DNA of 64,000 nucleotides from a bacterium (GCA_037200965.1 JBBCGK010000001.1:160001-224000), one strand, 5' to 3'. Shown: positions 7,330 through 58,215, numbered from the stretch's first letter. Translations and numbers: made by a program. Notes: a model not told the origin generated them from the letters alone.

Positions 7330-7647
7330 ATGCAAAACTGCATCATCATCCACGGCTGCCCCTCGAACGTCGAGAAGGCGATGAATCCCGAGACTCGGAC
7401 GCATGATAAGCATTGGATTCCATGGGTTAAGAACACGCTTACAAAATTCGGAATTCCGACCGAGGCTCCGCTCATGCCCGAACCGTGGGAGCCGTCATAC
7501 GAGAAATTCAAGGCAGAGTTGCGCCCGCTCCACTACCCTCTAATCGCGAGCCGCCTCTGCGGCAAGATGCCCAGCGAGCGTAGTGATGAAGGTCTTGAGA
7601 CTGGTGAGCTCGCTCATGTCCGAGTAGTCGCCGGTGTCCTTGGCTGA
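7330..7647 (+). pseudogene. N-terminal fragment of a YdeN/RBBP9-like alpha/beta serine hydrolase (truncated)
   Basis: IIIHGCPS...HW.PW...FGIPTEAPLMPEPWEPSYEKF resembles the N-terminus of the Ser_hydrolase family. The ORF then runs into and overlaps the convergent endonuclease gene, with no sensible C-terminus. Confidence 0.3.
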
Positions 7648-8274
7648 CTGCGGCGAGAGCATGATGCACGCCGACGTGTAAAGCTGTTCCTGCACGAGCT
7701 TTTTGCAGAGGATGTTGTAGCGATCGGCATAGGATGCGCCTTTGAATTCCGGAAGCAATGGGAAGTGCGGCGAATTATCCGTCACTGGCGAGCGCGAGCC
7801 CGGCGCGTCTTCGAGGAGCATGAGCCAGCCGACGAATGGCTTCGGTTGTTCCCCGAACGCTCCTTCCCGGTACGCGGTCCACAGGTCGTGCGCGGTCCCG
7901 ATTGCTTCTTCTATGCGATTATTGAAATTATTGCCGAACGAGCCGACCTGCGACTTGAATTCGAGCGCGGCGACGAGACGGCCTTCGCTGAGTATGAGGA
8001 AATCCCATTGCTTAGTTGGTCTGAAGAAGCCCGGTAGGGTGACGAGACGCCCGCTATGAATGACCGTCGCATCTGTAAGGCCATTTGCTTCGGCAAGATC
8101 TGCCATCAGCGTGGCGAAGCCATCCATGTTCTTACCCGCAGTGACTGCGCCGCGGGTTCCTTGGTCTACAGTTCCGGATTCCTCCTGTTGCCGGACCGCA
8201 ACACTGCGATTGCCCCAGAACAGTTCGACTGCCTGTTTAGCACGCTTCTCGTATTGCGCGAGGTCTATGGCCAT
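7540..8274 (-). CDS. type II restriction endonuclease candidate (PaeR7I/XhoI-like)
   Basis: 244-aa ORF lying 5 bp downstream of a methyltransferase gene on the same strand, arranged as an R-M operon. Size and general composition recall the XhoI/PaeR7I family. The family call rests on recollection alone. Confidence 0.5.
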
Positions 8275-8279
8275 ACGTT

Positions 8280-9986
8280 TTATGCCTTGATGGTAGCACG
8301 CTCGGATGGAGAGAGAGAAAACAAGGCGGATACGGCTTCGTCGCGGGCTTCAGAGTCATCACTGCCCGCTGCCGCGCGAAGCGCCTGCTGCAGATCCTTG
8401 GAGACATCGCTCCACCGCGGCAACCGGATACGCCGCAGATACTGTGCCTGAAACCGGAGACAGTTCCCGTGCATGCGCGTCGAGTAGGTCTCGATGAATA
8501 CGCGCGCGATGCCAGAGAGCAAGACGGCACGGAGCGCTTGAAGATCCCATTCGTCGGAGGTGATGTAGTAAAGATTGTGATGAGGATACAGCTTGCCCTC
8601 GTCGTAGACGATATGGGCATCGCCCTTGATATCTGGGATCAGGAGTTTCGGCTTCTGCACGAGCTCCGGATAGATACGGTCGATCGTGCGGTACCAAGCG
8701 CTCGGGTTCTTCTTGGAGACGTGCCGGTTCCTGATCGCCACTTCGTGCTGTCCGAGGTATGCGCGCAGCCGGGGATACTTCTCAAGCGAGACCGGCTTCC
8801 CGTCATTCCCGAATGGATTCACGACGCCCAGTCCGCGCCATGCTACCGTACCCGTCTGAATATCCTTGGTCATTACGAGCGGAAGTTTGCACTCGGCCTC
8901 GACATCGAGCGTATCGAAGGGCGCGATGAACACATCGTCTGCCCCCGTCGCAACGCCGATACCCACCTTGCATCCCGTTTCCTCCAGCGTTGGGAAATCA
9001 CTCTCAAGGCGGCGAATGAGCGCGAGTGTGTCCGACTCCTCAAGCGTCCATGGGTCGCCGCCGGTGATGGTCGTTACTTTTACGGACTCATGGTCGGCCA
9101 ATGCGCCTCGCACGAGCGCGCGGGCCAGATCCTCTAGCGCAGATGCCTCAATCTCCGGGCGCTTCGCCACATAGGTCGGACCGGCCGACTCGCGGGCGAT
9201 TACGGTGATTGCCGGATATGCGATCACTTCCGAATGGAAGGCTGGGGTACCGACCATGTCGACGTATGTCCGCATGTGGAATCGCTTCGCGACAAGTTCG
9301 CGGAGGGGACCTCCGTAGCGATTCTTCATCCAGCGGTCAGCGCAGATAAAACCGAGCGTGCCGCCCTCATCGAGGAGCTTCAGCGAGTATTCGATAAAAG
9401 GGATAAAAATATCTGCTCGATCGTAAATCGTCTCGTACCGGCGACGGTACTCGGCCATCAGCACATTGGGTACCATCTCTTGCCTGATGTACGGCGGATT
9501 TCCGACAACATGAGTAAAGGAGTGCCCGAATGGCGTGAGCAGGAAGTCGCCTTGGACGAGCCAAGCCCCAAGGATTTCTTCGCTTTGATCGATAGTTAGT
9601 CCGTTCTGGAGGAGAATCGCTCGCACTTCCTTCCTCGTCTTATCAAATGACCCCATGTGGAGCTCCACCCCGCGGATACTGTCTCTCAAGAGATCTGCAC
9701 TGGGCTTTATGTTCCTAGTCTTGAGCGAGGACATGAGCCGCTTCACCGCTGGTATGAGGAAATCTCCATGTCCGAACGACGGTTCGAGAAGACGTGCCGC
9801 GTACAGTTCATTGGAAGGCACATAACCGACGAGGTCGAGTATAAAATCCACCACTTCCGACCGCGTGAAAATGGCCCCGCGGTCGTCGGTTCCTGCTGCT
9901 GCAAACTCCTCTATGGCAGACGCGACTGGAGAAAGGCCGGGGAGGAATTCCTGCGCGAGCTGTCCTTTTAGCGTGCCAACTCTCAT
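8280..9986 (-). CDS. N6-adenine DNA methyltransferase (Eco57I/TaqI-like gamma-class)
   Basis: NPPY catalytic motif ([10 protein letters not shown]). An AdoMet-binding region lies upstream ([11 protein letters not shown]). The start is set at MRVGTLKG (ATG at 9984-9986). The upstream in-frame extension is Cys/Ser-rich and does not look like protein. Confidence 0.7.
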
Positions 9987-10143
9987 GTGTTTAATAATAC
10001 CATTCCCGGGAGTGAGAGAGCGATTTCGAGGTATTGAACCATTACGAAGGACTTGACACAAGTATCTACTTATGATAGAGTCTGTCCTGGTAGTAGATTC
10101 CATTCCGGCATCTCCCCAGCCACGAACCTTACAGGAGGCTTCC

Positions 10144-10485
10144 ATGGCACGTTCAATCATCCTCGAGTCCGACCCCGAAGCACGCGTTGGTTTCAACGCG
10201 CAGGAAGGAGCGGGACACGAGAAGACCGAATCCCGCGTCGTCATCGACATCAGCGGTTACAAGCTGGTGCATGACACGGAAACGGAAGGAGGCCTGCATG
10301 TCGTGCAGCTCTACCTCACCGTTCCTCAAATGGCACAGCTTGTGCGGATGTTTTTCTTGGAGATTGCTAAGGAAAACATCTACGCACAGCTCCTTCGTCG
10401 GCTCCTCCGGCAACGGTGGAAGGTCATGACGAATGGTGCCGCCAAGCACATGGGTTGGATGCCGCGATACGATCAAGGCGTCTGA
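10144..10485 (+). CDS. hypothetical protein
   Basis: An AGGAGG RBS lies 6 nt before the ATG at 10144. The protein is 113 aa with no recognised domain. Confidence 0.4.
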
Positions 10486-13809: not shown

Positions 13810-14385
13810 ATGGAAATCGATCGGGAGATACTCAAGAAGATCAACTCGCTCCCGAATCCGATGCTCATCGCAATCTCGGGCTTTGGGGGATCGGGGAAAT
13901 CGACCGCCGCGGAAAAGCTTGGCGCGTACCTCGACGCTCCGGTGATAGGAGTCGACTCGTTCGCGCGCCACAGGCTTTCCGGCGGAACCGCGTGGAATTC
14001 GGTCGATTTCGGACGCCTTGAACGGGAAGTATTGAAGCCGTTTGAAGCCGGTCAGAATCCCCTCGTATACGGGCACTATGACTGGAGCAGCAACGGCATC
14101 GTGACCACCGCTCCCGTCGAACACCGGGGCCGCCTTATCGTAGAAGGCGTCGGCCTCTTCCGTCCGGAGCTGTATCAATACTTTTCATACATGCTGTGGA
14201 TAGACTGTCCGCTTGAGGAAGCGGCGGCGCGGGGAAAGAAGCGCGACAGGGAAATTCATAACAATCCGCAGGACGAGCGGTGGGACGGGGTTTGGAAAAG
14301 GAACGATCTCGAATACCTTGCGGCCTACAAGCCGGACGAAATGGCGAATGCGGTAATCAAAAACGAGAAGATCGATCTGACTTAA
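13810..14385 (+). CDS. P-loop nucleoside/uridine-kinase-like protein
   Basis: Walker A ISGFGGSGKST near the N-terminus. Its size fits the PRK/uridine kinase family. Confidence 0.55.
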   Translation: MEIDREILKKINSLPNPMLIAISGFGGSGKSTAAEKLGAYLDAPVIGVDSFARHRLSGGTAWNSVDFGRLEREVLKPFEAGQNPLVYGHYDWSSNGIVTTAPVEHRGRLIVEGVGLFRPELYQYFSYMLWIDCPLEEAAARGKKRDREIHNNPQDERWDGVWKRNDLEYLAAYKPDEMANAVIKNEKIDLT

Positions 14386-14775: not shown

Positions 14776-15819
14776 GCGGTGAATCCCCACCCTAATCGCA
14801 ACAAAGTTTGCAGGCTAATTGCAACAGCTCTTTTGGGTTCCACACTCTCTGGATATGGCACATACCCAGATTGGGCCAGGAGACTGGCCGGTGATTGCCC
14901 GCATGCTGCGGGCAGGACACGCGATCCGAGAGATCGCACGTACGCTTGAGAAGGATGCAGGATCGATCTCTCGTCATGTGAACGAATACGGCGGACGTGA
15001 GGGATATGATGTACGCGAAGTACGCAGAAAGAAGAAGCTGAAACGCATTGCTGCAATGGACAGTATTCGCGTGCTCAAGGGTGCGCTCTTGCGCACGGTG
15101 GTGCGTATGCTCAAAGACCACCACTCTCCTGAGCAAATTGAAGGGGTGACGGGTGCAGTCTCCGCCAGCACCATATACCGATATATTGAGGAGCGTGCTC
15201 CGCACCTGAAGCAGTTCCTCAGATCATCCAAAGGCAAATACCGTCGCAGGCGCGGTACCAAAATACGCGAGAAGGCTCGTGAAGCGGCCAAGAAGCAGCG
15301 TATTGATGACCGTCCAACGATTATTGAACGACGAAGCCGGCTCGGCGACTGGGAGGGCGATACGGTGCAAGGCAGCGACAAGCGAGTCCGCATTGTCACC
15401 TTTGTGGATCGCAGGAGCGGATACCTGGTTGCATACTTGTTGCCCAAGATGCGCGCCGAGCTCCTCACGTCGCTTGCGCTCGCACGCTTCCGTCATATTC
15501 CGCGTGCCAAACGCAAGACCATCACGCTCGACAACGGTCCAGAATTTGCCGACTGGAAGCGACTCGGGAAGAAGAGCGGGGCAACCGTGTACTTCGCATA
15601 CCCGCACCGTCCTTGGGAGCGTGGTACCAACGAGAATACCAACGGACTCCTGCGTCAGTACTTTCCTCGTTCGCTCAACTTCAACCTGATCACCCCTGAG
15701 GAGCTGGCGCATGTGGTGAAGAAGCTCAATGACCGGCCGCGCAAGCGTCTGAAATTCGAATCACCGCGCTCGATATTTCTGAGGAAGTGAGTGTTGCAGT
15801 TAGAGTGGGGTTCAGGCGG
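14776..15819 (+). mobile_element. IS30-family insertion sequence, copy 1 (about 1.04 kb)
   Basis: Imperfect terminal inverted repeats (left ggtgaatccccaccctaatcgcaaca; right end, reverse-complemented, ctgaaccccactctaactgcaaca). The right boundary follows from the divergence point against copy 2 (15819 versus 63050). Confidence 0.75.
14855..15790 (+). CDS. IS30-family DDE transposase
   Basis: N-terminal HTH, then GDWEGDTV, DNGPEF and TNENTNGLLRQYFP motifs typical of IS30 transposases. The protein is identical to the copy at 63081-64000. Confidence 0.85.
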   Translation: MAHTQIGPGDWPVIARMLRAGHAIREIARTLEKDAGSISRHVNEYGGREGYDVREVRRKKKLKRIAAMDSIRVLKGALLRTVVRMLKDHHSPEQIEGVTGAVSASTIYRYIEERAPHLKQFLRSSKGKYRRRRGTKIREKAREAAKKQRIDDRPTIIERRSRLGDWEGDTVQGSDKRVRIVTFVDRRSGYLVAYLLPKMRAELLTSLALARFRHIPRAKRKTITLDNGPEFADWKRLGKKSGATVYFAYPHRPWERGTNENTNGLLRQYFPRSLNFNLITPEELAHVVKKLNDRPRKRLKFESPRSIFLRK

Positions 15820-15925: not shown

Positions 15926-17281
15926 ATGGAAAACACGATACTCTATTTCCTGCCCTCACGGGTCGCGAAGAGCATCCCCGATCTCGGAGATGACGTCACG
16001 CTCGGCCCTGAAATGATCTTCAAGGCCGATGACGGATTCTTCGTGCGCGGACACGTGCTCGGTGGTCCCGCAAGCGGCATTCTCAGGCTGCTTCGGGAAG
16101 CCGATCTCACGTCCTGCGGCTCAAGCGCCGCAGACGGCGCACCCGTCGTTATCGTCTCGCGCAAAGCGGACGAAAACGATATCCTCATCACGCATCATCA
16201 GACCGGCGAAAACACGCCGGAGTCGGAACTCTACCCGGTGCTGCTTAACAGCTCCAGAGACGCGCTCATGCGCTTCGCCGCCTATACGGGGCTCGTTCCC
16301 CGGATGCACTTCAGGGCGACGCGCGTTTGCGAACCGTTCGCCGAAGGCGACGATTCCACGATCCACTTCATCGTCGGCGCAAGCCCGCCGGGAGCGATAT
16401 CCGAGCTCGACCGCCGGGACCTGTGCGGCGTGCGTCTGCATCCAAGCGGCCTGTACCGGACTACGAACGGCCCGACGCACGGGCGGGGCTTCCTCATCAA
16501 GGACGAACACGACCAGTTGTGCGCGCAAGTGCTAGACCGGAACGTGTTCCTCTTTACGCCGCGCCTTACTCTCGAGACGTCGGCGCTGTTTTCTTCCGAA
16601 GGGGGCGACCTCCTTCTGAAGATACTCCGCCTTGTTTCGAAGGCCTTGGCCGAAGACCGGAAAGCCGAGACTGAGATATCTCTCGATTCGGCCGAGGCAT
16701 ATGGACAACACGCCTTCGCCAGCATGATCGCCAGCAATAAAGACGTTCTCGCGGCTATCAAGAATGCCGAGAGCGAGATCGAACGGTTACGTACCAGGTA
16801 TCATGAAGCGCTCGCGACACATCGGCACTACATCGCCACCCTTGCGATGGGGAGCGCCATTCTTGAAGGCATGGTGCAGGAAAATGCGGAAAGCGACTGG
16901 AAACGGCTTTCGTCCAATCCGCTCGTCGAGGGGCTATCTGTCCTTGACGGGGCGCTTCATGTGCGGACGAAACCGATTATCGGCATACACGAAGGGCGCC
17001 GCTATGACTATGGGCCCTTCATGATCCGAATGCACTTCCGAGGAACAATCTCGATCTGGGCGCTCGCGCCCACGCATCCCCGCAAACTCCATCACCCGCA
17101 TATCTCGGAACGGAGTTCGCCGTGCTTCGGGAACGCGGGACTGTATATCGAGGAAGCCCTCGAATCGTTTCGGGTCGCCGATGCGCTCGAGCTCGTGCTC
17201 GAGTGGCTCGTGTCCGGGTATGATCCGGCGCTGGCAAGCGTAAAGATCGAAGAGTGGCCTCTCTATCAGGAGGCCGCGTGA
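15926..17281 (+). CDS. E2/UBC-like protein with a roughly 350-aa N-terminal domain of unknown function
   Basis: C-terminal HHPHISERSSPC. It matches the E2 catalytic signature HPN-x7-C with identical H-to-C spacing. A GGAAG RBS lies upstream. The stop overlaps the start of the E1-like gene (TGATG). Confidence 0.5.
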   Translation: MENTILYFLPSRVAKSIPDLGDDVTLGPEMIFKADDGFFVRGHVLGGPASGILRLLREADLTSCGSSAADGAPVVIVSRKADENDILITHHQTGENTPESELYPVLLNSSRDALMRFAAYTGLVPRMHFRATRVCEPFAEGDDSTIHFIVGASPPGAISELDRRDLCGVRLHPSGLYRTTNGPTHGRGFLIKDEHDQLCAQVLDRNVFLFTPRLTLETSALFSSEGGDLLLKILRLVSKALAEDRKAETEISLDSAEAYGQHAFASMIASNKDVLAAIKNAESEIERLRTRYHEALATHRHYIATLAMGSAILEGMVQENAESDWKRLSSNPLVEGLSVLDGALHVRTKPIIGIHEGRRYDYGPFMIRMHFRGTISIWALAPTHPRKLHHPHISERSSPCFGNAGLYIEEALESFRVADALELVLEWLVSGYDPALASVKIEEWPLYQEAA

Positions 17282-17934
17282 TGGGCGCGCTCAATCATTC
17301 GCACCAAGTCAGAATCTTCGATCCGGCCAATGCCCGCAAGACCGTCGTCTTCGGCGTCGGTGCGGTAGGCAGCTGGCTTGTCGAATTTCTCGTCCGGATG
17401 GGCGTGAAGGATATCGAGGTCTGGGACGATGACTTTGTCGCCTCGGACAACCTGCCGTATTCGCGGTACCTGCCGAAGCACCTCCAGATGTATAAAGTGG
17501 ATGCGCTCCGGCAGATACTGGCCGAACTCGGCGTGGAGCTTGCCGTACACCGGGAGCGCTACGTCGGGCAGGTGGAATACCGCAACGTCTCGGTCGTCTC
17601 GTGCGTTGACGACATGATCCCGCGAAACACTATCTGGGACATGGTGAAGCGGCAGAGGATCTCGATCGATCTCTTCTGCGACACCCGTATGGCAGGGGCG
17701 TACGTTGAAGCCTTTGCCATCGCGCCGTGCGATCCGAAGGATGTGCGGCGATACGAAGCAATGCTGTTCCCGAACGAGGAAGCAATTCTTCAAGCGTGCG
17801 GGAATCACAACATCGCCTACGCAGCAAGCCGTGCGGCCGGGATTGTGGCGGCAAACCTGACACAGTTCTGGTCTCACGGCACGAAAGAGTGGCTCCGCCG
17901 CGAGCGTTGTGATACGCTCAAAGTGGTCCCGTAA
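17281..17934 (+). CDS. minimal ThiF/MoeB/E1-like adenylyltransferase
   Basis: Rossmann VVFGVGAVGSWLVEFLVRMGV...DDDFVASDNLPYSRY and a downstream CGNHNIAYAASRAAG block typical of the ThiF/E1 adenylation domain. The protein is 218 aa. Confidence 0.7.
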   Translation: MGALNHSHQVRIFDPANARKTVVFGVGAVGSWLVEFLVRMGVKDIEVWDDDFVASDNLPYSRYLPKHLQMYKVDALRQILAELGVELAVHRERYVGQVEYRNVSVVSCVDDMIPRNTIWDMVKRQRISIDLFCDTRMAGAYVEAFAIAPCDPKDVRRYEAMLFPNEEAILQACGNHNIAYAASRAAGIVAANLTQFWSHGTKEWLRRERCDTLKVVP

Positions 17935-17967
17935 CCATCAGCCGCCAAACGAGAAGGAGATATTCTC

Positions 17968-18198
17968 ATGGCAAACACCACCGTGACCGTCAAGGTCACT
18001 CCCGCCGGGGGAGATGCCTCGGAACAGTCCGTCGAAATCGAAGCGACCGGCGCACCCGTCAGTGCGGTTCTGGAGAAGGCGGGCATCAAGTACGACCCGA
18101 CCCAGCAGATCATGGTCGACGGCGAGCCGGCCGATCAGCGCACCCACGTTCCGGCAGGCGGCGTGGTATCCATGACCGAAAAGGTGCGCGGTTCCTAA
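17968..18198 (+). CDS. beta-grasp ubiquitin-like / ThiS-MoaD-like protein (76 aa)
   Basis: A GGAGA RBS lies 8 nt upstream. The ...IMVDGEPADQRTHVPAGGVVSMTEKVRGS tail resembles ThiS/MoaD C-termini, with Gly penultimate. A strong terminator follows directly. Confidence 0.5.
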   Translation: MANTTVTVKVTPAGGDASEQSVEIEATGAPVSAVLEKAGIKYDPTQQIMVDGEPADQRTHVPAGGVVSMTEKVRGS

Positions 18199-18223
18199 AC
18201 ACTTCGCGCTCAGTGCAAGACAA

Positions 18224-18259
18224 GGCCGTCCGGTAACCCCGGGCGGCCTTTTGCTTTTT
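18224..18259 (+). terminator. intrinsic terminator
   Basis: ggccgtccgg-taac-ccgggcggcc stem with one mismatch, followed by ttttgcttttt. Confidence 0.65.
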
Positions 18260-18296
18260 ATTGCATATACAGAAAGCACGATATCATCCGGAAGAT

Positions 18297-19460
18297 ATGC
18301 TCCGCGTTCTCATCGCCGACTATAAAAACGCCGATATCTCGGCAGAGATACCCTACCTGTTCAAGAAGGCGGGCTGCGAGGTCGATGTGTATTGCAGAAA
18401 AGGTTCCTGGCTTTTAAAGAACCGCTCATGGGACAGGTGGCACGAGGCAGCGAGCGACCCTGCCGAATATGCAAAGGGCCTTATAGCCCGAGTTGAGAAC
18501 GCCTCGTACGACTGGATTATCCTTACGGACGACCCGGTGCTGAGGATCATGAACGACAGGATCGGCGACGATTCGGCGGCACTCAAGATATTGCCCGTTG
18601 CAAAGCTTGCGAACAGGAATGTGATCGGCTCGAAAGCCGCACTTTCGCTTCTCTGCGAGAAATACCAACTCCGAACTCCTCCGTTCGCGATATATAACGA
18701 GGGAGACGATCTGTCCGCCCTCACGGCAACGGTCGGGTATCCGCTCCTTCTTAAGGTCGACCGGAGCGGCGGCGGGAGCGGCGTATTCCGCTGTATCGAT
18801 GAATCCAAGCTCGCGGAAACACTCCGCCTCCTCGCTCCCGATCAGAGAAAGAATCTCGTATTCCAGAAATACATCGAAGGAGACAACATCGGCGTCGACG
18901 CGCTGTACCGAAAAGGAACGCTGCTCGCCTATGCCCGCTCGAAGGTCGTGCGAACGGTGACGGACGAATTCAGCATTTCTTCGGTGCGTTCGTACGCGCC
19001 GGATGAAACCATCGAACCCGAACTGCGGCGCATAGGGGAAGAGATCGGGATCGACGGCTTTTGTAATTTCACGTTCATGCAGGAGGGAAGGACGGGAACG
19101 TACTACCTCATCGAAGCCGACCTGCGCCCGCACGCCTGGTTCTCCCTCGCGCGCCTCGGCGGCGTCGACTTCTCACTTGCCATACGCAACTACTTGTCCG
19201 GTTCAAATACGCTTATAGGGCAGCCTTGCGCGGCGGAAGTCGAGATCCGGCACTTCTTCAGGGATTTCAATTGGTCGGTCGAGCGGGGGGACTGGCGCGG
19301 CATTCTCATGTGGATCTTCAATAGAGACGGCCGATGGAAATTCGTTCCGCTTCATGACCGGCGGATCTTTTTTGCGACGCTGGGGCAGCTTGCCAGGAAC
19401 CGCCTGCGAAGCCTGCACCGCCTCCTACATGTATCCTTCATGAAGCGCCTGCTAGGGTAG
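18297..19460 (+). CDS. ATP-grasp family ligase
   Basis: GYPLLLKVDRSGGGSGV and EGDNIGVDAL motifs are characteristic of ATP-grasp enzymes. A GGAAG RBS precedes the ATG at 18297. Confidence 0.55.
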   Translation: MLRVLIADYKNADISAEIPYLFKKAGCEVDVYCRKGSWLLKNRSWDRWHEAASDPAEYAKGLIARVENASYDWIILTDDPVLRIMNDRIGDDSAALKILPVAKLANRNVIGSKAALSLLCEKYQLRTPPFAIYNEGDDLSALTATVGYPLLLKVDRSGGGSGVFRCIDESKLAETLRLLAPDQRKNLVFQKYIEGDNIGVDALYRKGTLLAYARSKVVRTVTDEFSISSVRSYAPDETIEPELRRIGEEIGIDGFCNFTFMQEGRTGTYYLIEADLRPHAWFSLARLGGVDFSLAIRNYLSGSNTLIGQPCAAEVEIRHFFRDFNWSVERGDWRGILMWIFNRDGRWKFVPLHDRRIFFATLGQLARNRLRSLHRLLHVSFMKRLLG

Positions 19461-36983: not shown

Positions 36984-38216
36984 ATGCGGCAATCGAAGCT
37001 TTTCACCAAAACCCGGCGCGAGGCGCCGTCTGACGAGCAGGCGAAGAATGCGCAGCTTCTCATTCGTGCCGGATACGTGCACAAGGAAATGGCTGGCTCC
37101 TACTCATACCTGCCGCTCGGCCTTCGCGTATTGCGCAATATCGAGTCGATCGTGCGCGAGGAAATGGACGCCATCGGCGGCCAGGAAACCCGCCTGGCGA
37201 CGCTGCATCCTTCGGAGCCCTGGAAAAAGACCGGCGGCTGGGACAAGGTGGACGTGCTTTTCAAAATCCTGAGCCGGACCGAAAAGGAATACACCATCGG
37301 GCAAAGCGAGGAAGAAATCGTGACGCCGATCGCGGGCGAATACGCGCCTTCGTACAAGGACCTGCCGAAGGCCGTCTACCAGATCGGACAAAAATACCGC
37401 GATGAGCTGCGCGCGAAATCCGGCATCATGCGCGGAAGGGAATTCGGCATGAAGGACATGTACAGCTTCCATACGAGCCAGGAGGACTTCGAGCGATTTT
37501 ATGAGATCGTGAAAGCGGCATACCTCCGTATCTACAAGCGCTGCGGACTCGTCGCGAAAGTGACCGAGGCCTCGGGCGGCAGCTTCAGCGAGAAGATTTC
37601 GTACGAATTCATGGTGCTCACCGACGCGGGCGAGGATACCATTTTCTACTGCGAAGCATGCGATTATTGCGTGAATCTCGAAGTGGCAAAAGCGGCCGAA
37701 GGCGATACGTGCCCGAACTGCGGCAAGGGAACGCTCAGGAAAGGGGTCGCGTCGGAAGTCGGAAACGTGTTCGACCTTGGCGACCGCTATCCGAAAGCGC
37801 TCGGCTTCACCTATAAGGCGGAAGACGGCAGCGACCGCTATCCGGTCATGGGCTGCTACGGCCTTGGCACGACGCGCCTCATGGGCGTTATCGTCGAGGC
37901 GCTCGCGGACGGGAAGGGAATCGTATGGCCCGAGAGCGTCGCTCCGTTCAGGTTCCATATAGCCCTGCTGATACCGGATAACGCGGAATCCGTGCGTGCC
38001 GCCGAAGACTTGTATGAGCATCTCGGAACGCGGGCGCCGGTACTGTATGACGACCGTGATCTGCGCGCGGGAGAGAAATTCGCGGACAGCGATCTCATCG
38101 GGATTCCGTGGCGGATCAATGCCGGCAGGGACGCGGCAAGCGGTATCTTCGAACTCGTGAATCGCGGGACGGGCGAGGTAACGAAAAAAACGAAGGAGGA
38201 ACTCCTCGCGATTTAA
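36984..38216 (+). CDS. proS: prolyl-tRNA synthetase (short form lacking the INS editing domain)
   Basis: N-terminal bacterial ProRS pattern (LPLGLRVLRNIESIVREEM). Class II motifs are present. Only 410 aa. Confidence 0.8.
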   Translation: MRQSKLFTKTRREAPSDEQAKNAQLLIRAGYVHKEMAGSYSYLPLGLRVLRNIESIVREEMDAIGGQETRLATLHPSEPWKKTGGWDKVDVLFKILSRTEKEYTIGQSEEEIVTPIAGEYAPSYKDLPKAVYQIGQKYRDELRAKSGIMRGREFGMKDMYSFHTSQEDFERFYEIVKAAYLRIYKRCGLVAKVTEASGGSFSEKISYEFMVLTDAGEDTIFYCEACDYCVNLEVAKAAEGDTCPNCGKGTLRKGVASEVGNVFDLGDRYPKALGFTYKAEDGSDRYPVMGCYGLGTTRLMGVIVEALADGKGIVWPESVAPFRFHIALLIPDNAESVRAAEDLYEHLGTRAPVLYDDRDLRAGEKFADSDLIGIPWRINAGRDAASGIFELVNRGTGEVTKKTKEELLAI

Positions 38217-46662: not shown

Positions 46663-46707
46663 GTGGGTAGTAGTGGGATATACTCCCTTAATGGTCAGTG
46701 AAGTGGG
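46663..46707 (+). promoter_or_regulatory. putative MraZ operator / Pmra promoter region
   Basis: GTGGG direct repeats at 46663, 46673 (10-bp phasing) and 46703. A TATACT -10-like hexamer lies at about 46678. The region sits 50-90 bp upstream of mraZ. Confidence 0.35.
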
Positions 46708-46754
46708 AAGCGGAGTCATGGCCGCTTCCTGCCGATCCGGCCGCTCATCAACCC

Positions 46755-47189
46755 ATGTTCCTCGGCGAATACCTCCACACTTTCGATGCAAAGAACAGGA
46801 TCTCCCTTCCGTCGAGGTTCAGGAAGGATCTTGGCCGCGCGGTGATTATCACGCGCGGCCTCGATCATTGCCTCTACGTATATGCCCGCAAGGCGTGGGA
46901 GAAGGAAGCGGCAAAATACGCCGCGAAGGCGAGCGGGAATGCCGCGGAGCGCGGACTCGCGCGCCTTTTCCTCGCGGGCTCGTCCGACGCCGAGATCGAT
47001 AGCGCCGGGCGCATCCTGATACCCGAGAACTTCAAGGCGTTCGCCGGGATACAGGGCAAGGCGGTCGTCGCAGGCGTCGCCGACCGGGTCGAAATCTGGG
47101 AAGAAGAAGCGTGGAAGGCATACACCAAAGCCATCGAGCGCGATGCTGAAGCATATGCGGAGAAGGTAGGCGGGCAAGGGACTCTTTAA
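46755..47189 (+). CDS. mraZ: transcriptional regulator MraZ
   Basis: Duplicated DxxxR (FDAKNRISLP ... DSAGRILIP) MraZ motifs. Confidence 0.85.
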   Translation: MFLGEYLHTFDAKNRISLPSRFRKDLGRAVIITRGLDHCLYVYARKAWEKEAAKYAAKASGNAAERGLARLFLAGSSDAEIDSAGRILIPENFKAFAGIQGKAVVAGVADRVEIWEEEAWKAYTKAIERDAEAYAEKVGGQGTL

Positions 47190-47195
47190 ATACGT

Positions 47196-48167
47196 ATGGA
47201 ACCGCGCACCCTTGAAGCCAGGCACGACAGCGTCCTCCTCCCGGAGGTCCTTGAGGCGCTTCGGATAGAGGCGACTGATGTCGTGGTGGACGCGACGGTA
47301 GGCGGGGCAGGGCATTTCAAGAGCTTTTTCGAGGCTCTCGGCCCGGAGGGAACGCTTATAGGAATCGACGCGGATGCGGCGGCGCTCAAGCGGGCCAAGG
47401 AGGTGCTTGCGGCCGATCCGCGCGCTCCCGGCGCCCGCCCGCACGTTCATCTGGTCGAGGATAATTTCCGCAACCTCCCGTCGATACTCGATACGCTTGG
47501 TATAGAGCGGGTGGATAAGATCCTGTTCGACCTCGGATGGAGCGGCTTCCAGCTTGCGGAGAATCGCGGATTTTCCTTCCAGGCGGACGAGCCGTTATTG
47601 ATGGCGTATGGAAGCGCGGCGGGGCAGCAGACGGCGGCAGAAATCGTTAACGGCTATTCCGAAGAGGAGCTTGCCGATCTCATTTATTCGCTCGGGGAAG
47701 AGCGCTTCGCCCGCGGCATCGCGAAGTCGATCGTCACGGCCCGAAGGGAGAAACATCTTCTTACCACCGCCGACCTCGTGCATGCGGTCGAGCTTGGCAC
47801 TCCCGCCTGGTACCAGCACCGCCGGACGCACCCGGCAACGAAGACATTTCAGGCGCTGCGGATCGCGGTGAACGACGAACTCGGAGCGCTTCGGGACGGC
47901 CTTTCCGCGGCGCTTTCCCGCGCGGCAGCAGGCGGACGCATCGCGGTCATCACCTTCCACAGCATCGAAGACCGGATCGTTAAAAGCTTCTTCAAGGATG
48001 CGGCGCATACGGGACAAGGAACGCCTGTTACGAGAAAGCCCGTCGTCCCGAGCTTCGCGGCCGTGCGCGAGAACCGGCGCGCACGAAGCGCGAAGCTCCG
48101 GGTATTTGAAGTCGGCGTTTCCGGACTTGCCCGCCAGGAGGAGTCTCTCAACCATGCCTATGCGTAG
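47196..48167 (+). CDS. rsmH: 16S rRNA (cytosine1402-N4)-methyltransferase RsmH
   Basis: VVDATVGGAGH AdoMet-binding motif and the overall MraW pattern. Confidence 0.9.
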   Translation: MEPRTLEARHDSVLLPEVLEALRIEATDVVVDATVGGAGHFKSFFEALGPEGTLIGIDADAAALKRAKEVLAADPRAPGARPHVHLVEDNFRNLPSILDTLGIERVDKILFDLGWSGFQLAENRGFSFQADEPLLMAYGSAAGQQTAAEIVNGYSEEELADLIYSLGEERFARGIAKSIVTARREKHLLTTADLVHAVELGTPAWYQHRRTHPATKTFQALRIAVNDELGALRDGLSAALSRAAAGGRIAVITFHSIEDRIVKSFFKDAAHTGQGTPVTRKPVVPSFAAVRENRRARSAKLRVFEVGVSGLARQEESLNHAYA

Positions 48168-48459
48168 CGTCGTCCATGCGTTTTCCCTGGTGCAGTGGCT
48201 CGGCGGCGTGGTCGCCGTGCTCGTCGTCGCCTATATCGCGCTCATCGCGTTCGTCATGTCCTATGCCGCGGTGCAGACGGAGACGGCACAGTCGGTCCGG
48301 GACGGAAGCGCGCAGGTGAGCCTTCTTGAAATCCGCTACCTCGAGAAAACCGCGGCGCTCGGGGCGATGGACCCGGCGAGCCTCGGATACTCCGCTCCGC
48401 TCGCGAAGAATTTCGTCGAAGGTCCGGCTCGCGCGGCGATCAATACCGGGCGCCGCTAA
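48154..48459 (+). CDS. ftsL: FtsL-like cell division membrane protein
   Basis: 101-aa single-TM protein between rsmH and ftsI. Confidence 0.45.
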   Translation: MPMRSVVHAFSLVQWLGGVVAVLVVAYIALIAFVMSYAAVQTETAQSVRDGSAQVSLLEIRYLEKTAALGAMDPASLGYSAPLAKNFVEGPARAAINTGRR

Positions 48460-48468
48460 CAGAAAGGC

Positions 48469-50196
48469 ATGCGCGCGACATTCCGAGCACGGCTGCGCAT
48501 ACTTCTCGGGATCATAGGGCTTATCGCTCTTCTGCTCGTTGCCCGCCTCTATTTCGTGCAAATCGTGAACGGTTCGGAGTATGCGCTCCGGGCCGACCGG
48601 CAGTATCTTTCGCAAAGCCAGGCGCTCTTCGATCGCGGATCAATCTATTTCACGCGCCAGGACGGCACGCTCATCTCGGCGGCAAGCCTTGGAAGGGGCT
48701 TCCTGCTTTCGCTTAATCCTTCAAAGATTAAAGACGCGGAGGCGGCATACCAGGCTCTTTCCGCCCTGACGCCGCTTGACCACGACGCGTTCATCGCCGC
48801 GGCTACGAAACCGCACGACGTATACGAGGAGGTGGCGCACCGGCTTCCGGAAGATGTCGGTACCAGGATCGCGGCGCTTAAGATCCCGGGCGTAAGTCCT
48901 CTCCGGGAGCGCTGGAGGGAATATCCGGGGGGGGCGCTCGCCGCGCAATCGATCGGCTTTATCGCCTATAACGGGGGCGACACGCTCGCCGGGCGCTACG
49001 GCCTCGAGCGCTACTACGACGACACGCTCGCCCGCGACAACGGCTCGCTCTATCAGAATTTCTTTGCGCAGCTCTTCGCGAACCTCGGGAACGCGCTCGT
49101 CGACGCGCGGGCAAGCCGCCAAGGGGACATCGAGACCACCATCGAGCCGCAGGTGCAGGCGCACCTCGAGGACGACCTGAAGGCCGTGCAGGCGAAGTAT
49201 GCGAGCCGGGAGACCGGAGGCATCATTATGAATCCCGCGACCGGGGAAATCATCGCGCTTGGCGCGACGCCGGGCTTCGACCTTTCCGACTTCCAGAACG
49301 GGAACGCGGAGCATTTCGGGAATCCGCTCGTCTCGAGCGTCTACGAATTCGGCTCCATTATGAAGCCCCTTACGATGGCTTCGGGTATCGACGCCGGGGT
49401 AGTAACGCCTTCGACGACATACAACGACACGGGATGCATCGAGGTGAACGGATCGAAGATCTGCAACTTCGACCTCAAGGCCCGCGGGGTTGTGCCGATG
49501 CAGGAGGTGCTCTCGCAGTCGCTTAACGTGGGCGCGTCGTATATCGCGACCAGGCTCGGGCCAGACCGCTTCCGCACCTATTTTACGTCTCTTCGCTTCG
49601 GCGAGGAGACGGGCATCGATCTCCCGAGCGAAATCCACGGGATCACGGGAAACCTCAAAAGTCCCCGCCAGCTCGAGTACGACAACATGTCGTTCGGGCA
49701 GGGTATCGCCGAAACCCCGGTCGAGATGATCCGCGCGCTCGGAACGCTCGCGAATCGCGGCAGCATGGTCACGCCGCATCTTGCGCGCGCGATACGCCTC
49801 GATTCGGGCATCACGAAGACGCTCGACTGGGGAGAGCCGGTTCCGGTCTTCAAGCCCGAAAGCGCGCAGGCCGTGACGCAGATGCTCACGCAGGTCGTCG
49901 ACACGGCGCTCGCGCACGGGGCGAAGAAGATCCCCGAGATGTCGGTCGCCGCAAAAACGGGAACGGCGCAGATGGCCGCGCCCGGCGGGGGATACTACGC
50001 GAACGAGTATTTCCACTCCTTCTTCGGCTATTTCCCCTCGTATTCCCCGCACTTCATAATCCTCCTCTATACGGTTAAGCCCCAGGGCGTACAATATGCG
50101 TCCGAGACGCTCACGGACACCTTCGCGGACCTGGTGCATTTCCTCGTGAGTTACTACGGCGTCCCGCCCGACCGAGCCAATGAAAACAATCCTTAG
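48469..50196 (+). CDS. ftsI: penicillin-binding protein 3 / FtsI-like transpeptidase
   Basis: N-terminal TM. SxxK (SIMKP), SxN and KTGT motifs. Sits in dcw context. Confidence 0.8.
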   Translation: MRATFRARLRILLGIIGLIALLLVARLYFVQIVNGSEYALRADRQYLSQSQALFDRGSIYFTRQDGTLISAASLGRGFLLSLNPSKIKDAEAAYQALSALTPLDHDAFIAAATKPHDVYEEVAHRLPEDVGTRIAALKIPGVSPLRERWREYPGGALAAQSIGFIAYNGGDTLAGRYGLERYYDDTLARDNGSLYQNFFAQLFANLGNALVDARASRQGDIETTIEPQVQAHLEDDLKAVQAKYASRETGGIIMNPATGEIIALGATPGFDLSDFQNGNAEHFGNPLVSSVYEFGSIMKPLTMASGIDAGVVTPSTTYNDTGCIEVNGSKICNFDLKARGVVPMQEVLSQSLNVGASYIATRLGPDRFRTYFTSLRFGEETGIDLPSEIHGITGNLKSPRQLEYDNMSFGQGIAETPVEMIRALGTLANRGSMVTPHLARAIRLDSGITKTLDWGEPVPVFKPESAQAVTQMLTQVVDTALAHGAKKIPEMSVAAKTGTAQMAAPGGGYYANEYFHSFFGYFPSYSPHFIILLYTVKPQGVQYASETLTDTFADLVHFLVSYYGVPPDRANENNP

Positions 50197-52810: not shown

Positions 52811-52882
52811 GGCCCTATCGTCTATCGGTTAGGACGGAAGCTTCTCAAGCTTCAAAGCCGGGTTCGACTCCCGGTAGGGTCA
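52811..52882 (+). tRNA. tRNA-Glu (anticodon CTC)
   Basis: Cloverleaf folded by hand. 7-bp acceptor (GGCCCTA/TAGGGTC), D-stem gtct/ggac, anticodon stem gaagc/gcttc with loop TTCTCAA, T-arm ccggg-TTCGACT-cccgg and discriminator A. No encoded CCA. Confidence 0.8.
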
Positions 52883-56048: not shown

Positions 56049-57131
56049 ATGAATGTCCTTGCCATCGGCATCGCGGTCATCGTACTCCTCATACTCCAAG
56101 GAATCGGTTTCTGGTTCATCTTCGGGCGGGGGAAGCGGGGGAGCGTTCTCCCCGAAGATACTTCGGCCATGATGCTTCTCCAGAAGCAGGTACAGGAGAT
56201 GGCGCGCGTGCTCGACACCCGCGTGTCGGAATCCTCCCGCGCCATGCAGGAAAGCGTCGACCGGCAGCATTCGGAATCGACGAGGCTCATCAAGGAAATC
56301 ACGCAGGAGATCACCTCGGTCAAGGAGATCGGGCGGCAGACCGGGAAATTCGCCGAGCAGCTCCAGAACCTTCAGGATGTGCTCAGCAATCCGAAACAAC
56401 GGGGAATTCTCGGCGAGTATTATCTCGAGACCGTGCTTAAGAACGTGCTTCCGCCCGGGATGTATACGATGCAGCACCCGTTTTCTAACGGCGAGATAGT
56501 GGATGCGGCCGTTTTCATAAGCGACAAGATCGTGCCGATCGATTCCAAGTTCTCGCTCGATAACTACAACCGCTTTATCGGATCACCCCTCAATACCCCC
56601 GAGCGCGCAAGCGCGGAGAAAGCATTCGTGAACGATTTGAAGCTTCGGATAAGCGAAACCGCCAAGTATATCCGCCCCGAGGAAGGAACGATGGATTTCG
56701 CCTTCATGTTCATCCCCTCCGAGGGCATCTATTACGACCTTCTCGTAAACACGATCGGAAGCGGGGAAGAGGAGAACCTCATCCAGCGCGCCGCCGCCAA
56801 ATACAAAGTGATCATCGTCTCGCCCACCTCGTTCCTCGCGTACCTCCAGACCGTGATGCAGGGCCTCAAGGCGCTCCAGATCGAGCAGAAGGCGGTCGAA
56901 ATCCAGAAACGGGTAGGGGAACTCGGAAAGCACATCGGCAGCTACGAGGAATTTTATAAGAAGCTCGGGAACTCCCTCGGGACGGCCGTCTCCCACTACA
57001 ACAGCGGGTATAAGGAGCTCGGGAAGATAGACAAGGACGTATACCGCATCGCGGAGTCCAGGGCGGGGGTTGAGCCTACGCTCCTTGAGAAACCCTTCTT
57101 GAATTCAAACTCTAAATGCCCGCTTCTTTAA
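56049..57131 (+). CDS. rmuC: DNA recombination protein RmuC
   Basis: N-terminal TM, a long coiled-coil and a C-terminal RmuC nuclease-like region (DFAFMFIPSEGIYYDLL). The last 27 bp overlap the IS30-type transposase gene. Confidence 0.75.
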   Translation: MNVLAIGIAVIVLLILQGIGFWFIFGRGKRGSVLPEDTSAMMLLQKQVQEMARVLDTRVSESSRAMQESVDRQHSESTRLIKEITQEITSVKEIGRQTGKFAEQLQNLQDVLSNPKQRGILGEYYLETVLKNVLPPGMYTMQHPFSNGEIVDAAVFISDKIVPIDSKFSLDNYNRFIGSPLNTPERASAEKAFVNDLKLRISETAKYIRPEEGTMDFAFMFIPSEGIYYDLLVNTIGSGEEENLIQRAAAKYKVIIVSPTSFLAYLQTVMQGLKALQIEQKAVEIQKRVGELGKHIGSYEEFYKKLGNSLGTAVSHYNSGYKELGKIDKDVYRIAESRAGVEPTLLEKPFLNSNSKCPLL

Positions 57132-58112
57132 TAATAGCGCAAATGCTTCTTCAGGTGTTTTGAAGCCGATAGCTTTTCTGGGCCGAGTATTGAGCTGCTT
57201 CTGCGCTTGCTTCAAATACTTAGTTGGCACCCGCCGGAAGTCCGTTCCCTTGGGGAAATACTGACGAATAAGGCCATTGGTATTTTCGTTTGTACCACGC
57301 TGCCACGGGCTTTGTGGATCAGCGAAATACACCTGCACCCTGGTCTCTTTGGTGAAGAGTTCGTGCTCAGCCATCTCGCTGCCGCGATCATGGGTGATTG
57401 ATCGGAAGGCTTCGCGGGGCAAGCTCTTCACGGTTTTCGTAAGTGCCATGCGCACCGCAGGAGCGGTCTTTTCTCTGAGCGGCACCAGAATGGTCATGCG
57501 CGTGGTGCGTTCCACCAAGGTCGCAATGGCTGATTGATGTCCTTTGCCGATAATGAGGTCGCTCTCCCAGTGTCCAGGTACTGAGCGGTCTTCCGTTTCT
57601 TTGGGGCGCTCGTGAATACTCACCATATTGGGTATCTTTCCTCGCCTGTCGTGCACCCGATACCTGCGCCTGCGCCCTTCGGCGCCCTGGCGCAGGTACG
57701 ACGTAAGCTCCTTGCGGAGGCTCCCGCGCGGGAGCACATAGATATAGGTGTAGATGGATTCGTGGGAGACTTGCATACGAGTATCTGTAGCGTAGTGCTG
57801 TTTCAAGTACTGCGCAATCTGCTCCGGGCTCCAGCGAAGCCGGAGCTTTGCATACACGACACGCTGAAGAGGCGCGTAGTTGAGCTTCTTCCCGCGTCTC
57901 GGGATTTTCTTTTTCTTTCGTGCATCTTTGTGTGCCCGGCTTGGTCGGTATCCTTCAAACAACGGTTTCGAGCGTCTGAGCTCTCGTCTGATGGTTTTAG
58001 GATCGCGATTGAGCTCGCGTGCGATTTCGACTGGCCAGAAGTAGGCTGCACGCATAAGACCAATGCATTCTCGTTCCTCGAACGTTAGGTGGGTATACAT
58101 ACGTGGTATCAT
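57105..58112 (-). CDS. IS30-family DDE transposase (a second, distinct IS30 element)
   Basis: HTH N-terminus (HLTFEERECIGLM), GHWESDLIIGKGHQ, HDRGSEM and TNENTNGLIRQYFPKGTDF. It is not identical to the 14855/63081 copies. Confidence 0.8.
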   Translation of the reverse strand: MIPRMYTHLTFEERECIGLMRAAYFWPVEIARELNRDPKTIRRELRRSKPLFEGYRPSRAHKDARKKKKIPRRGKKLNYAPLQRVVYAKLRLRWSPEQIAQYLKQHYATDTRMQVSHESIYTYIYVLPRGSLRKELTSYLRQGAEGRRRRYRVHDRRGKIPNMVSIHERPKETEDRSVPGHWESDLIIGKGHQSAIATLVERTTRMTILVPLREKTAPAVRMALTKTVKSLPREAFRSITHDRGSEMAEHELFTKETRVQVYFADPQSPWQRGTNENTNGLIRQYFPKGTDFRRVPTKYLKQAQKQLNTRPRKAIGFKTPEEAFALLLKKRAFRV

Positions 58113-58215
58113 ATGCGGGCAGTTAGAGGTTGAGAGTAGCCTTCGCAAATATTGACTAAACCAATAACATACCGTATTCTCCCGTCGGAACCGAAGCTTT
58201 GAAAAGGAGAATTAG

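Follow-up and report, generated by a model that had tools for sequence, protein, structure and literature searches.

The 64,000-nucleotide window analysed here (GCA_037200965.1 JBBCGK010000001.1:160001-224000, one strand of a bacterial genome) contains a cassette of three genes between positions 15,926 and 18,259. In this order they encode a large protein, here called X, a small E1-like protein of the ThiF family and a ubiquitin-like protein (Ubl). Judging from the folds, the conservation of motifs, the operon structure and the gene order across about 20 loci, as established computationally, it is probable that the cassette is a new self-contained three-gene E1-E2-Ubl conjugation system of the Patescibacteria (candidate phyla radiation, CPR), with X in the role of the E2. 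The conjugation activity as such we infer.

Among the bacterial operons that resemble ubiquitination systems, we place the cassette in a fourth family of its own, minimal in make-up and apparently restricted to the CPR. Conjugation by an E1, an E2 and a Ubl has been validated in bacteria only recently, for Cap2, Bil and Bub, and each of these validated families has a peptidase and a link to phage defence. If our reading is correct, a fourth and architecturally distinct family is to be added beside them. It would be the most minimal so far, with an E1 of 217 amino acids (aa), no peptidase and no E3. That three dedicated genes are retained in CPR genomes of about 1 Mb would imply a real need for them. 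An earlier reading of this DNA (the original prediction) had called the operon an atypical and possibly undescribed variant. This assessment stands: X has no family match in Pfam, NCBIfam, PADLOC or PHROG, and a search of the literature on ubiquitin-like, E1, E2 and ThiF proteins of the CPR, Patescibacteria and Parcubacteria turned up no description of such a cassette.

An E2-like domain in protein X

Comparison of X with the Pfam E2 families (UQ_con, Prok-E2_A to E and related ones) gives no match even at E<=1, and the relationship to E2s comes instead from structure modelling and from comparing profiles. The AlphaFold2 (AF2) model of X, based on an alignment of 137 sequences, has a mean predicted local distance difference test score (pLDDT) of 93.6; an earlier model made from 6 sequences reached a pLDDT of 59 and was discarded as too poor. 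In the model the C-terminal domain is compact and combines six short strands with two helices and a long loop. The N-terminal helix, the antiparallel beta-meander and the C-terminal helices of the ubiquitin-conjugating (UBC) fold are all present. The best structural matches of residues 330-445 are eukaryotic E2s (UBE2D2, UBE2L3, UBE2S and Ubc12), at a sequence identity of 8-15%. BilB, a validated bacterial E2, superimposes on eukaryotic E2s at 3.0-3.4 Å over 93-99 residues; X matches them as well as BilB does, and in X the motif at the HPN position is kept.

The original prediction had suggested holding the C-terminus of X against UBC-fold profiles, and two such comparisons point to E2s. When the profile of the X C-domain is aligned by hhalign with eukaryotic E2s (a small, hand-entered alignment), the result is a probability of 82% and a P value of 1.1e-5 over 123 columns, with the HPH motif (390-392) placed over HPN and Cys400 over Cys85. 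The other two regions of X, used as controls against the same E2s, give P values of 0.12 and 0.61. A hidden Markov model (HMM) of 40 X C-domains was also searched against 177,635 distinct PDB sequences. At E<=10 there are 12 matches, with E2s ranked at the top; 10 of the 12 are E2s (UBE2L3, E 0.17), in the same active-site register as with hhalign.

The HPH-x7-C motif, which the original prediction had likened to the HPN...C active site of eukaryotic E2s, is indeed found at residues 390-400 with identical spacing (HP[N/H]-x7-C). Cys400 lies in the loop after the meander, at a spacing of 7 after the HPN-position motif. H390, H392, C400 and G402 do not vary at all in 137 sequences of the X family. 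P391 is present in 99%, and H384, P391, N403, W427, L428, Y432 and W444 are conserved at >=91%. The extended motif HPH-x7-CxG occurs in 145 of 153 family members. Because of this invariance and this frequency, the motif is far beyond what chance would produce. It is worth noting that X has five cysteines in total and that C400 alone is conserved. The His-Pro-Asn triad itself is absent: 137/137 sequences have His-Pro-His, with an invariant His in place of the Asn, and an Asn conserved in 91% (Asn403) sits at Cys+3. X thus differs from eukaryotic E2s in the third residue of the motif, in its low identity, in its lack of a UQ_con match and in being paired with a minimal bacterial E1. Together these results support a UBC/E2-like C-terminal domain in X; the formation of a thioester on Cys400 is predicted.

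The part of X in front of this domain had been described as a single large novel domain of about 350 aa. Its novelty holds, as no family matches it, but it is a composite of a variable sub-domain, a conserved alpha/beta domain and a long helix, the last turns of which double as the first helix of the UBC fold. In the first 100 residues or so, P10 is the sole conserved residue, strands and helices are modelled at 6-91, and many homologues start aligning only at profile position ~85-110. Several identities were considered for the N-terminal region and rejected. The middle domain could have been a second, inactive domain of the UBC, RWD or UEV type, as hinted by its topology, an 'IHF...PPG' motif and matches to the tandem-RWD protein Knl1; hhalign gives P 0.12 against UBC and 0.11 against the C-domain of X. 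Nor does the N-terminal domain look like the missing peptidase: conservation there falls on Gly, Pro and aromatic residues and on R187, D193 and Q201, and a Cys, His or Ser that could serve in catalysis is not among them. A weak likeness to class I glutamine amidotransferases in Foldseek has a probability of ~0.1 and was disregarded.

The ubiquitin-like protein and its Gly-Ser tail

The third gene product had been read as a beta-grasp Ubl of 76 aa ending in VRGS, and both the fold and the tail are borne out. A profile of 47 Ubl sequences matches Pyrococcus furiosus PF1061 (1rws, E 5.5e-5) and SAMP2 (5lda_B, E 6.8e-5) in the PDB, with a weaker match to TtuB. The Pfam SAMP2 family reaches 28.3 bits (cutoff 27) for one homologue (from locus L005), while the Ubl of the window stays below the threshold; single Ubl sequences give recurrent weak matches to SAMP2, ThiS, Ub-Mut7C, RnfH and Multiubiquitin. 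The profile similarity supports a SAMP2-like beta-grasp Ubl, although the C-terminal Gly-Gly of SAMP2 is missing. The tail is instead strongly conserved in another form. All 49 database homologues end in Ser (Gly-Ser in 48/49 and Ser-Ser in 1/49), and the 12 Ubls taken from the loci themselves all end in Gly-Ser. Glu at position -6 is invariant. The terminal Ser is conserved more strongly than the Gly that precedes it. Extensions of Ubl precursors are usually variable, and the invariant Gly-Ser end poses a sharp question on the specificity of the E1.

A minimal E1-like protein

The second gene product matches Pfam ThiF (3e-12, 46.6 bits, cutoff 28.1), in agreement with its earlier assignment to the ThiF type; the length given then, 218 aa, becomes 217 aa when the ATG at 17281 is taken as the start (the open reading frame, ORF, is open from 17254 and runs to 17934 on the plus strand). 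None of the NCBIfam equivalogs for ThiF, MoeB, UbaA and TcdA is matched over its curated cutoff. The best of the NCBIfam matches is ThiF PRK08644 with 49.5 bits (cutoff 159), and MoeB (21.7 bits, cutoff 266) and UbaA (20.8 bits, cutoff 450) are also below. Against the PDB, the E1 profile finds TcdA-like proteins, ThiF, UBA5 (1e-8), PaaA, MccB, UBA3, Uba4, Cap2 and BubCD. The core of the E1/ThiF/MoeB superfamily is present, with a Rossmann GxGxxG, the ribose-binding Asp, the Lys and the Mg-binding Asp. Twelve E1s of the family share the invariant residues G25, G27, S31, D49, D51, S55, N57, K72, D110, R115, D134-T-R136 and C173-G-x-H176, and C173 is the sole Cys conserved among them.

Layout and distribution of the cassette

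The three genes are closely spaced and end in a strong terminator, as the original prediction had it. The TGA of X (17279-17281) and the ATG of the E1 gene overlap by one base, with an AGGAGG 8 nt 5' of that ATG. The Ubl gene starts after a gap of 33 nt and has a GGAG ribosome-binding site ahead of its ATG. The terminator has a 12-bp stem (18222-18250) with 9 GC pairs and a 5-nt loop, and is followed by a T-run. Coordinates are collected in Table 1.

Table 1. Features of the cassette and the adjacent insertion sequence, in window coordinates
Feature	Position	Strand	Basis
IS30 copy (context only; left end at or before 14871)	14871..15819	+	NCBIfam transpos_IS30, 3.7e-68
Gene X, 451 aa	15926..17281	+	ORF
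X residues ~1-100, variable alpha/beta sub-domain	15926..16225	+	Alignment coverage, AF2 model
X residues ~100-245, conserved alpha/beta domain, fold unassigned	16223..16660	+	Motifs PPG 154-156, GRG 186-188, D193, Q201
X residues 256-329, single helix of ~75 residues, coiled-coil-like	16691..16912	+	AF2 model
X residues 330-445, UBC/E2-fold domain	16913..17260	+	AF2 model, profile comparison
HPH motif, His390-Pro391-His392 (CAC CCG CAT), at the E2 HPN position	17093..17101	+	Alignment
Cys400 (TGC), predicted E2 active-site cysteine	17123..17125	+	Aligned to UBE2D2 Cys85, UBE2L3 Cys86
E1-like protein (ThiF family), 217 aa, single adenylation domain	17281..17934	+	Pfam ThiF, TGATG overlap
E1 nucleotide-binding loop GVGAVGS, residues 25-31	17353..17373	+	G25, G27, S31 invariant in 12 E1s
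E1 CGxH, Cys173...His176, candidate catalytic cysteine	17797..17808	+	Invariant in 12 E1s
SAMP2-like beta-grasp Ubl, 76 aa	17968..18198	+	Profile vs PDB
Ubl tail EKVRGS (family consensus ERPQGS-COOH), Glu71 and terminal Ser76	18178..18195	+	Alignment
Intrinsic terminator ending the operon	18222..18259	+	Hairpin plus T-run

An HMM search over 1.84 billion cluster representatives shows that the X family is large: with a threshold of E<=1e-3 it has 2394 representatives, mostly of 430-550 aa, and at the stricter limits of E<=1e-10 and E<=1e-30 there are still 810 and 181. A word-indexed search for X had given five homologues. Some 20 independent loci, genomic and metagenomic, share the order X-E1-Ubl as far as the length of the contig allows it to be seen. 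In these loci the ThiF-like protein has 215-224 aa and the Ubl 73-98 aa, and stops and starts mostly overlap or abut. Twelve loci (the window and L001-L011) were compared by clustering all ORFs against all others. Antisense shadows aside, only the X, E1 and Ubl families are common to all 12, and no fourth conserved gene is found among them. The flanking genes differ from locus to locus and include mraZ/rsmH, rpsB/tsf, gap/pgk and an island within the S10 ribosomal operon. The absence of a JAB peptidase, remarked on in the original prediction, holds at every locus examined; neither JAB nor any other peptidase is found within 10 kb of the cassette there. In one case (L010) an ORF of 755 aa looked like a fusion of X and E1, but this is an ATGA overlap of two frames and a high-GC artefact.

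All loci come from Patescibacteria-type genomes or metagenomes, and the named homologues belong to Patescibacteria, Uhrbacteria and Parcubacteria. The window itself encodes a short prolyl-tRNA synthetase (ProRS) of the CPR type (410 aa, 36984-38216) that is 72-78% identical to proteins of Patescibacteria, Parcubacteria and Minisyncoccia, which places the DNA of the window in a CPR genome. A phage origin of the cassette was considered and rejected, as no relatives were found in IMG/VR (pattern scan) or INPHARED (tblastn), and neither X nor the Ubl matches a PHROG family. As separate observations, the E1 matches the phage family phrog_15670 (a 228-position profile) at E 1.5e-11 over nearly its full length, so phages do have ThiF-like proteins of similar size; and in a Foldseek search of BFVD (E<=1e-3) the X model is matched by four viral proteins, all unnamed, with E values from 1.6e-5 to 6.5e-4, namely A0A6J5NL39 (1146 aa, uncultured Caudovirales), A0A516KZW4, A0A516LAI7 and A0A516LW79.

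Proposed mechanism and points against it

In the mechanism proposed for the cassette, the 217-aa E1, probably a homodimer like ThiF, MoeB and UBA5, would bind the SAMP2-like Ubl and adenylate its C-terminus. The acyl group would then move, probably via Cys173 of the E1, onto Cys400 of X, and X would pass the Ubl on to an amine or hydroxyl group of an acceptor. His390, His392 and Asn403 around Cys400 may act in place of the E2 HPN motif. Since no E3 is encoded, the choice of target, or else oligomerisation, is tentatively placed on the conserved N-terminal alpha/beta domain of X and its long helix, which would make X an E2/E3 hybrid. UBE2O and BIRC6 are E2/E3 hybrids with a large non-catalytic region on a UBC core, and X is similar. 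Because the cassette encodes no peptidase, either the terminal Ser itself would be activated, or a cellular peptidase encoded elsewhere would trim it.

As to the biological role, the variable and island-like contexts suggest that the cassette may possibly have an accessory function in stress or against phages; for phage defence in particular, the context gives a weak hint, through its variation between loci, the adjacent IS30, the XhoI-type restriction-modification pair upstream and, at one locus, the island with RelA_SpoT and DUF2726 genes. One could go further and propose a Patescibacteria-specific system whose chemistry would have no counterpart among the described cascades, in which a minimal E1 without an Arg finger activates the invariant Ser, X as an E2/E3 hybrid selects the target, and in the absence of a deconjugase the mark is irreversible and serves against phages or in interactions with the host of these episymbiotic, ultra-small bacteria. 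This extended version is doubtful, if conceivable.

Several observations weigh against conjugation. The Ubl ends in Gly-Ser and not in Gly or Gly-Gly. In Bil, where the BilA of E. aridi ends in Gly97-Ala98, the single Ala after the reactive Gly leaves the Ubl unreactive until the DUB (deubiquitinase) of the operon trims it. One residue past the Gly thus blocks the E1 there, and here no peptidase is linked. Ubls of the SAMP2 and TtuB types also double as sulfur carriers. The E1, in turn, aligns with solved E1s only over residues ~20-130, its N-terminal half. The canonical Arg of SNLxRQ is missing (SHNIPMSAY aligns to SNLNRQNY, so that Met/Tyr replaces Arg), and so are the Zn-binding CxxC pairs; because of these gaps the competence of the protein for adenylation is not assured. 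Finally, as residues 130-217 align to no solved E1, it is only by position that Cys173 would be the equivalent of ThiF Cys184 or UBA5 Cys250.

Alternative explanations

One alternative is a sulfur-carrier pathway, in which the Ubl, once adenylated by the E1, would receive a C-terminal thiocarboxylate in the manner of ThiS, MoaD, TtuB, SAMP2 or Urm1, with X as a persulfide relay or a sulfur-using enzyme working through Cys400. The closest solved relatives of the Ubl (SAMP2 and PF1061, more weakly TtuB) would fit, as would the JGI label 'sulfur carrier protein ThiS' on some homologues, ThiF as the best NCBIfam match of the E1, and the lack of both DUB and E3. However, that best match is far under its cutoff (49.5 vs 159 bits), with MoeB and UbaA also out of reach; the Ubls are all Ser-terminal, none having Gly-Gly; and conserved neighbours coding for ThiG, MoaE, TtuA, NcsA or a rhodanese are absent from the 12 clustered loci. 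X itself has a UBC fold with the E2-type His/Cys constellation, a single conserved Cys among five, and no significant match to sulfurtransferases, PP-loop or Fe-S proteins in family and fold searches. A sulfur-carrier pathway is therefore unlikely. Another alternative is a modification of the C-terminus without conjugation, in which the E1 would act on the terminal Ser of the Ubl in the style of MccB or PaaA, leaving X the part of a scaffold or accessory enzyme. The PDB matches of the E1 do include MccB and PaaA (5e-8 to 4e-7), the terminal residue is invariant and not Gly, and again there is no E3 or DUB. But the substrate is a folded, SAMP2-homologous Ubl of 73-98 aa, in contrast to a short leader-core peptide; the E1 has no N-terminal peptide-clamp domain (the matches to MccB begin at MccB residue ~112), and the E2-type active site of X is invariant across the family. 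We regard this explanation as improbable to a slightly greater degree than a peptidase-less relative of a known system, discussed below. The most improbable of all is that the C-domain of X is a metal-binding or JAMM-like peptidase, and thereby the 'missing' DUB or the enzyme trimming the Ser. The spacing H390-x-H392-x7-C400-x2-N403 is identical to the H-x-H-x7-S-x2-D of JAMM/MPN+ proteins, H384 is conserved as a potential fourth ligand, and the operon otherwise lacks a peptidase. Yet Ser is replaced by Cys and the Zn-binding Asp by Asn, residues 330-389 of X contain no conserved Glu, neither Pfam JAB nor Prok-JAB matches at E<=1, and neither the HMM search of the PDB nor the fold searches return an MPN fold. 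The JAMM reading of the motif was rejected, the fold being UBC and not MPN.

It may also be asked whether the cassette is a member, or a decayed remnant, of Bil, of Bub/6E or of the Cap2 system of type II CBASS (cyclic oligonucleotide-based antiphage signalling system) that has lost its peptidase. The original prediction had seen a match to Bil/Bub-type and 6E-type operons, and in gene content (E1, E2 and Ubl) this is correct; membership in these families is not found. The comparison with PADLOC, also proposed earlier, is similarly divided: the E1 matches the 'E1-E2' (Cap2) models at ~1e-10, over a Rossmann segment of ~70 residues only, and matches the NCBIfam model 6A-MBL cap2_3, while X and the Ubl match no PADLOC model. 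The surroundings could be taken in favour of such an origin, with a type II restriction-modification (R-M) system 5.7 kb upstream and the IS30 copy adjacent, and with RelA_SpoT and DUF2726 genes in the island that carries the cassette at L016/L017. Like the cassette, Bil (Types I and II) keeps the Ubl, the E2 and the E1 as individual genes of a single operon, relies on Cys catalysis and has no E3; its E2 is thought to choose the target itself. Bil, however, always has a JAB DUB, which no locus of the cassette has; the Bil E1, BilD, is an IAD-AAD-CYS protein of ~500 aa with a Zn site, in contrast to the single domain of 217 aa without Zn motifs seen here; and BilB has CEHH, with His downstream of the Cys, where X has HPH upstream. 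The order E2-E1-Ubl and the 330-residue N-terminal extension of the E2 are further differences. Bub (6E/DUF6527) shares the set of E1, E2 and Ubl, and Bub Type II usually lacks a JAB peptidase as well. It differs in its oxyester (Ser) intermediates, its Ubl-E2 or E2-E1 fusions (such as BubBD and BubCD) and its DUF6527 serine protease. In the cassette the genes are separate, the catalytic position is Cys, and no fourth gene is conserved. Cap2 likewise pairs an E1 adenylation domain with a UBC-like E2 domain, but as an E2-E1 fusion acting on the C-terminus of a CD-NTase, with Cap3 as the JAB; no CD-NTase, E2-E1 fusion or JAB is found in the loci. As neither JAB nor DUF6527 genes occur in ~20 loci and the architecture is uniform over hundreds of family members, the cassette is not a decayed copy, and descent from one of these systems is very unlikely.

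Relation to archaeal and eukaryotic systems

Read as a conjugation system, the cassette can also be compared with systems outside bacteria. Archaeal SAMP2/UbaA and PF1061 provide its closest solved Ubl relatives and a similarly small, single-domain E1. Sampylation is not known to use an E2; the SAMPs have a Gly-Gly terminus and are removed from their targets by a JAMM peptidase. In contrast to SAMP2/UbaA, an E2-like partner is present in every locus of the cassette and the tail is Gly-Ser. The combination of an HPN-position motif in X with a SAMP2-like Ubl means that the cassette bears on how E2-dependent conjugation could have arisen from E1-only sulfur-carrier/SAMP systems. UBA5 of the UFM1 system, one of the best matches of the E1, is likewise a minimal single-domain E1. 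The UFM1 precursor ends in Gly-Ser-Cys; UFM1 needs UfSP peptidases, and its E2, UFC1, is not known to have an HPN motif. No specific homology of the cassette to UFM1, UBA5 or UFC1 is seen beyond the level of the superfamily.

Genomic neighbourhood

The cassette had been placed directly beside an IS30 copy, and this is confirmed by the NCBIfam match and by a second copy at 64000-63052, which is in the opposite orientation, 100% identical over 949 bp and cut by the end of the window. Because this second copy defines the boundary, the right end of the first could be set at 15819, leaving 106 bp to X. The load of insertion sequences is unusually high for a CPR genome of ~1 Mb. A different IS30-like transposase (HTH_38 and rve) and an rve_3/HTH_32 transposase are encoded at 57105-58148 (minus strand) and 60737-61780 (plus strand).

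The type II R-M pair lies at 7540-10250 on the minus strand. Its endonuclease belongs to the XhoI family (Pfam 9.6e-89), and its methylase, of the Eco57I/N6-adenine type, carries a TaqI_C specificity domain. Upstream of X, at 13810-14385, there is a P-loop kinase-like gene (AAA_18/AAA_33/KTI12/Zeta_toxin type), and another is found upstream of X at 2449-2946 of L001, the locus of the closest homologue. As a conserved partner it was rejected, since clustering at 1e-6 keeps these two genes apart and none of the other loci has one. Just past the terminator, an ATP-grasp-like ORF (18261-19460, plus strand) has weak matches to CPSase_L_D2, ATP-grasp and RimK, near or below their thresholds; with the terminator in between and no conservation elsewhere, it is not counted as a member of the cassette. 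The island at L016 (2139-13606) and L017 (3797-10187) carries NUDIX, LigB, X-E1-Ubl, MFS, DUF2726, RelA_SpoT and MerR genes and splits the S10 operon of ribosomal proteins, with rpsS on one side of it and rplB on the other.

Farther away in the window, a division cluster resembling mraZ-rsmH-ftsI, recognised by sequence appearance only, is found at 46698-50196, and a tRNA-Glu(CTC) at 52811-52882 is the only Rfam match in the 64 kb.

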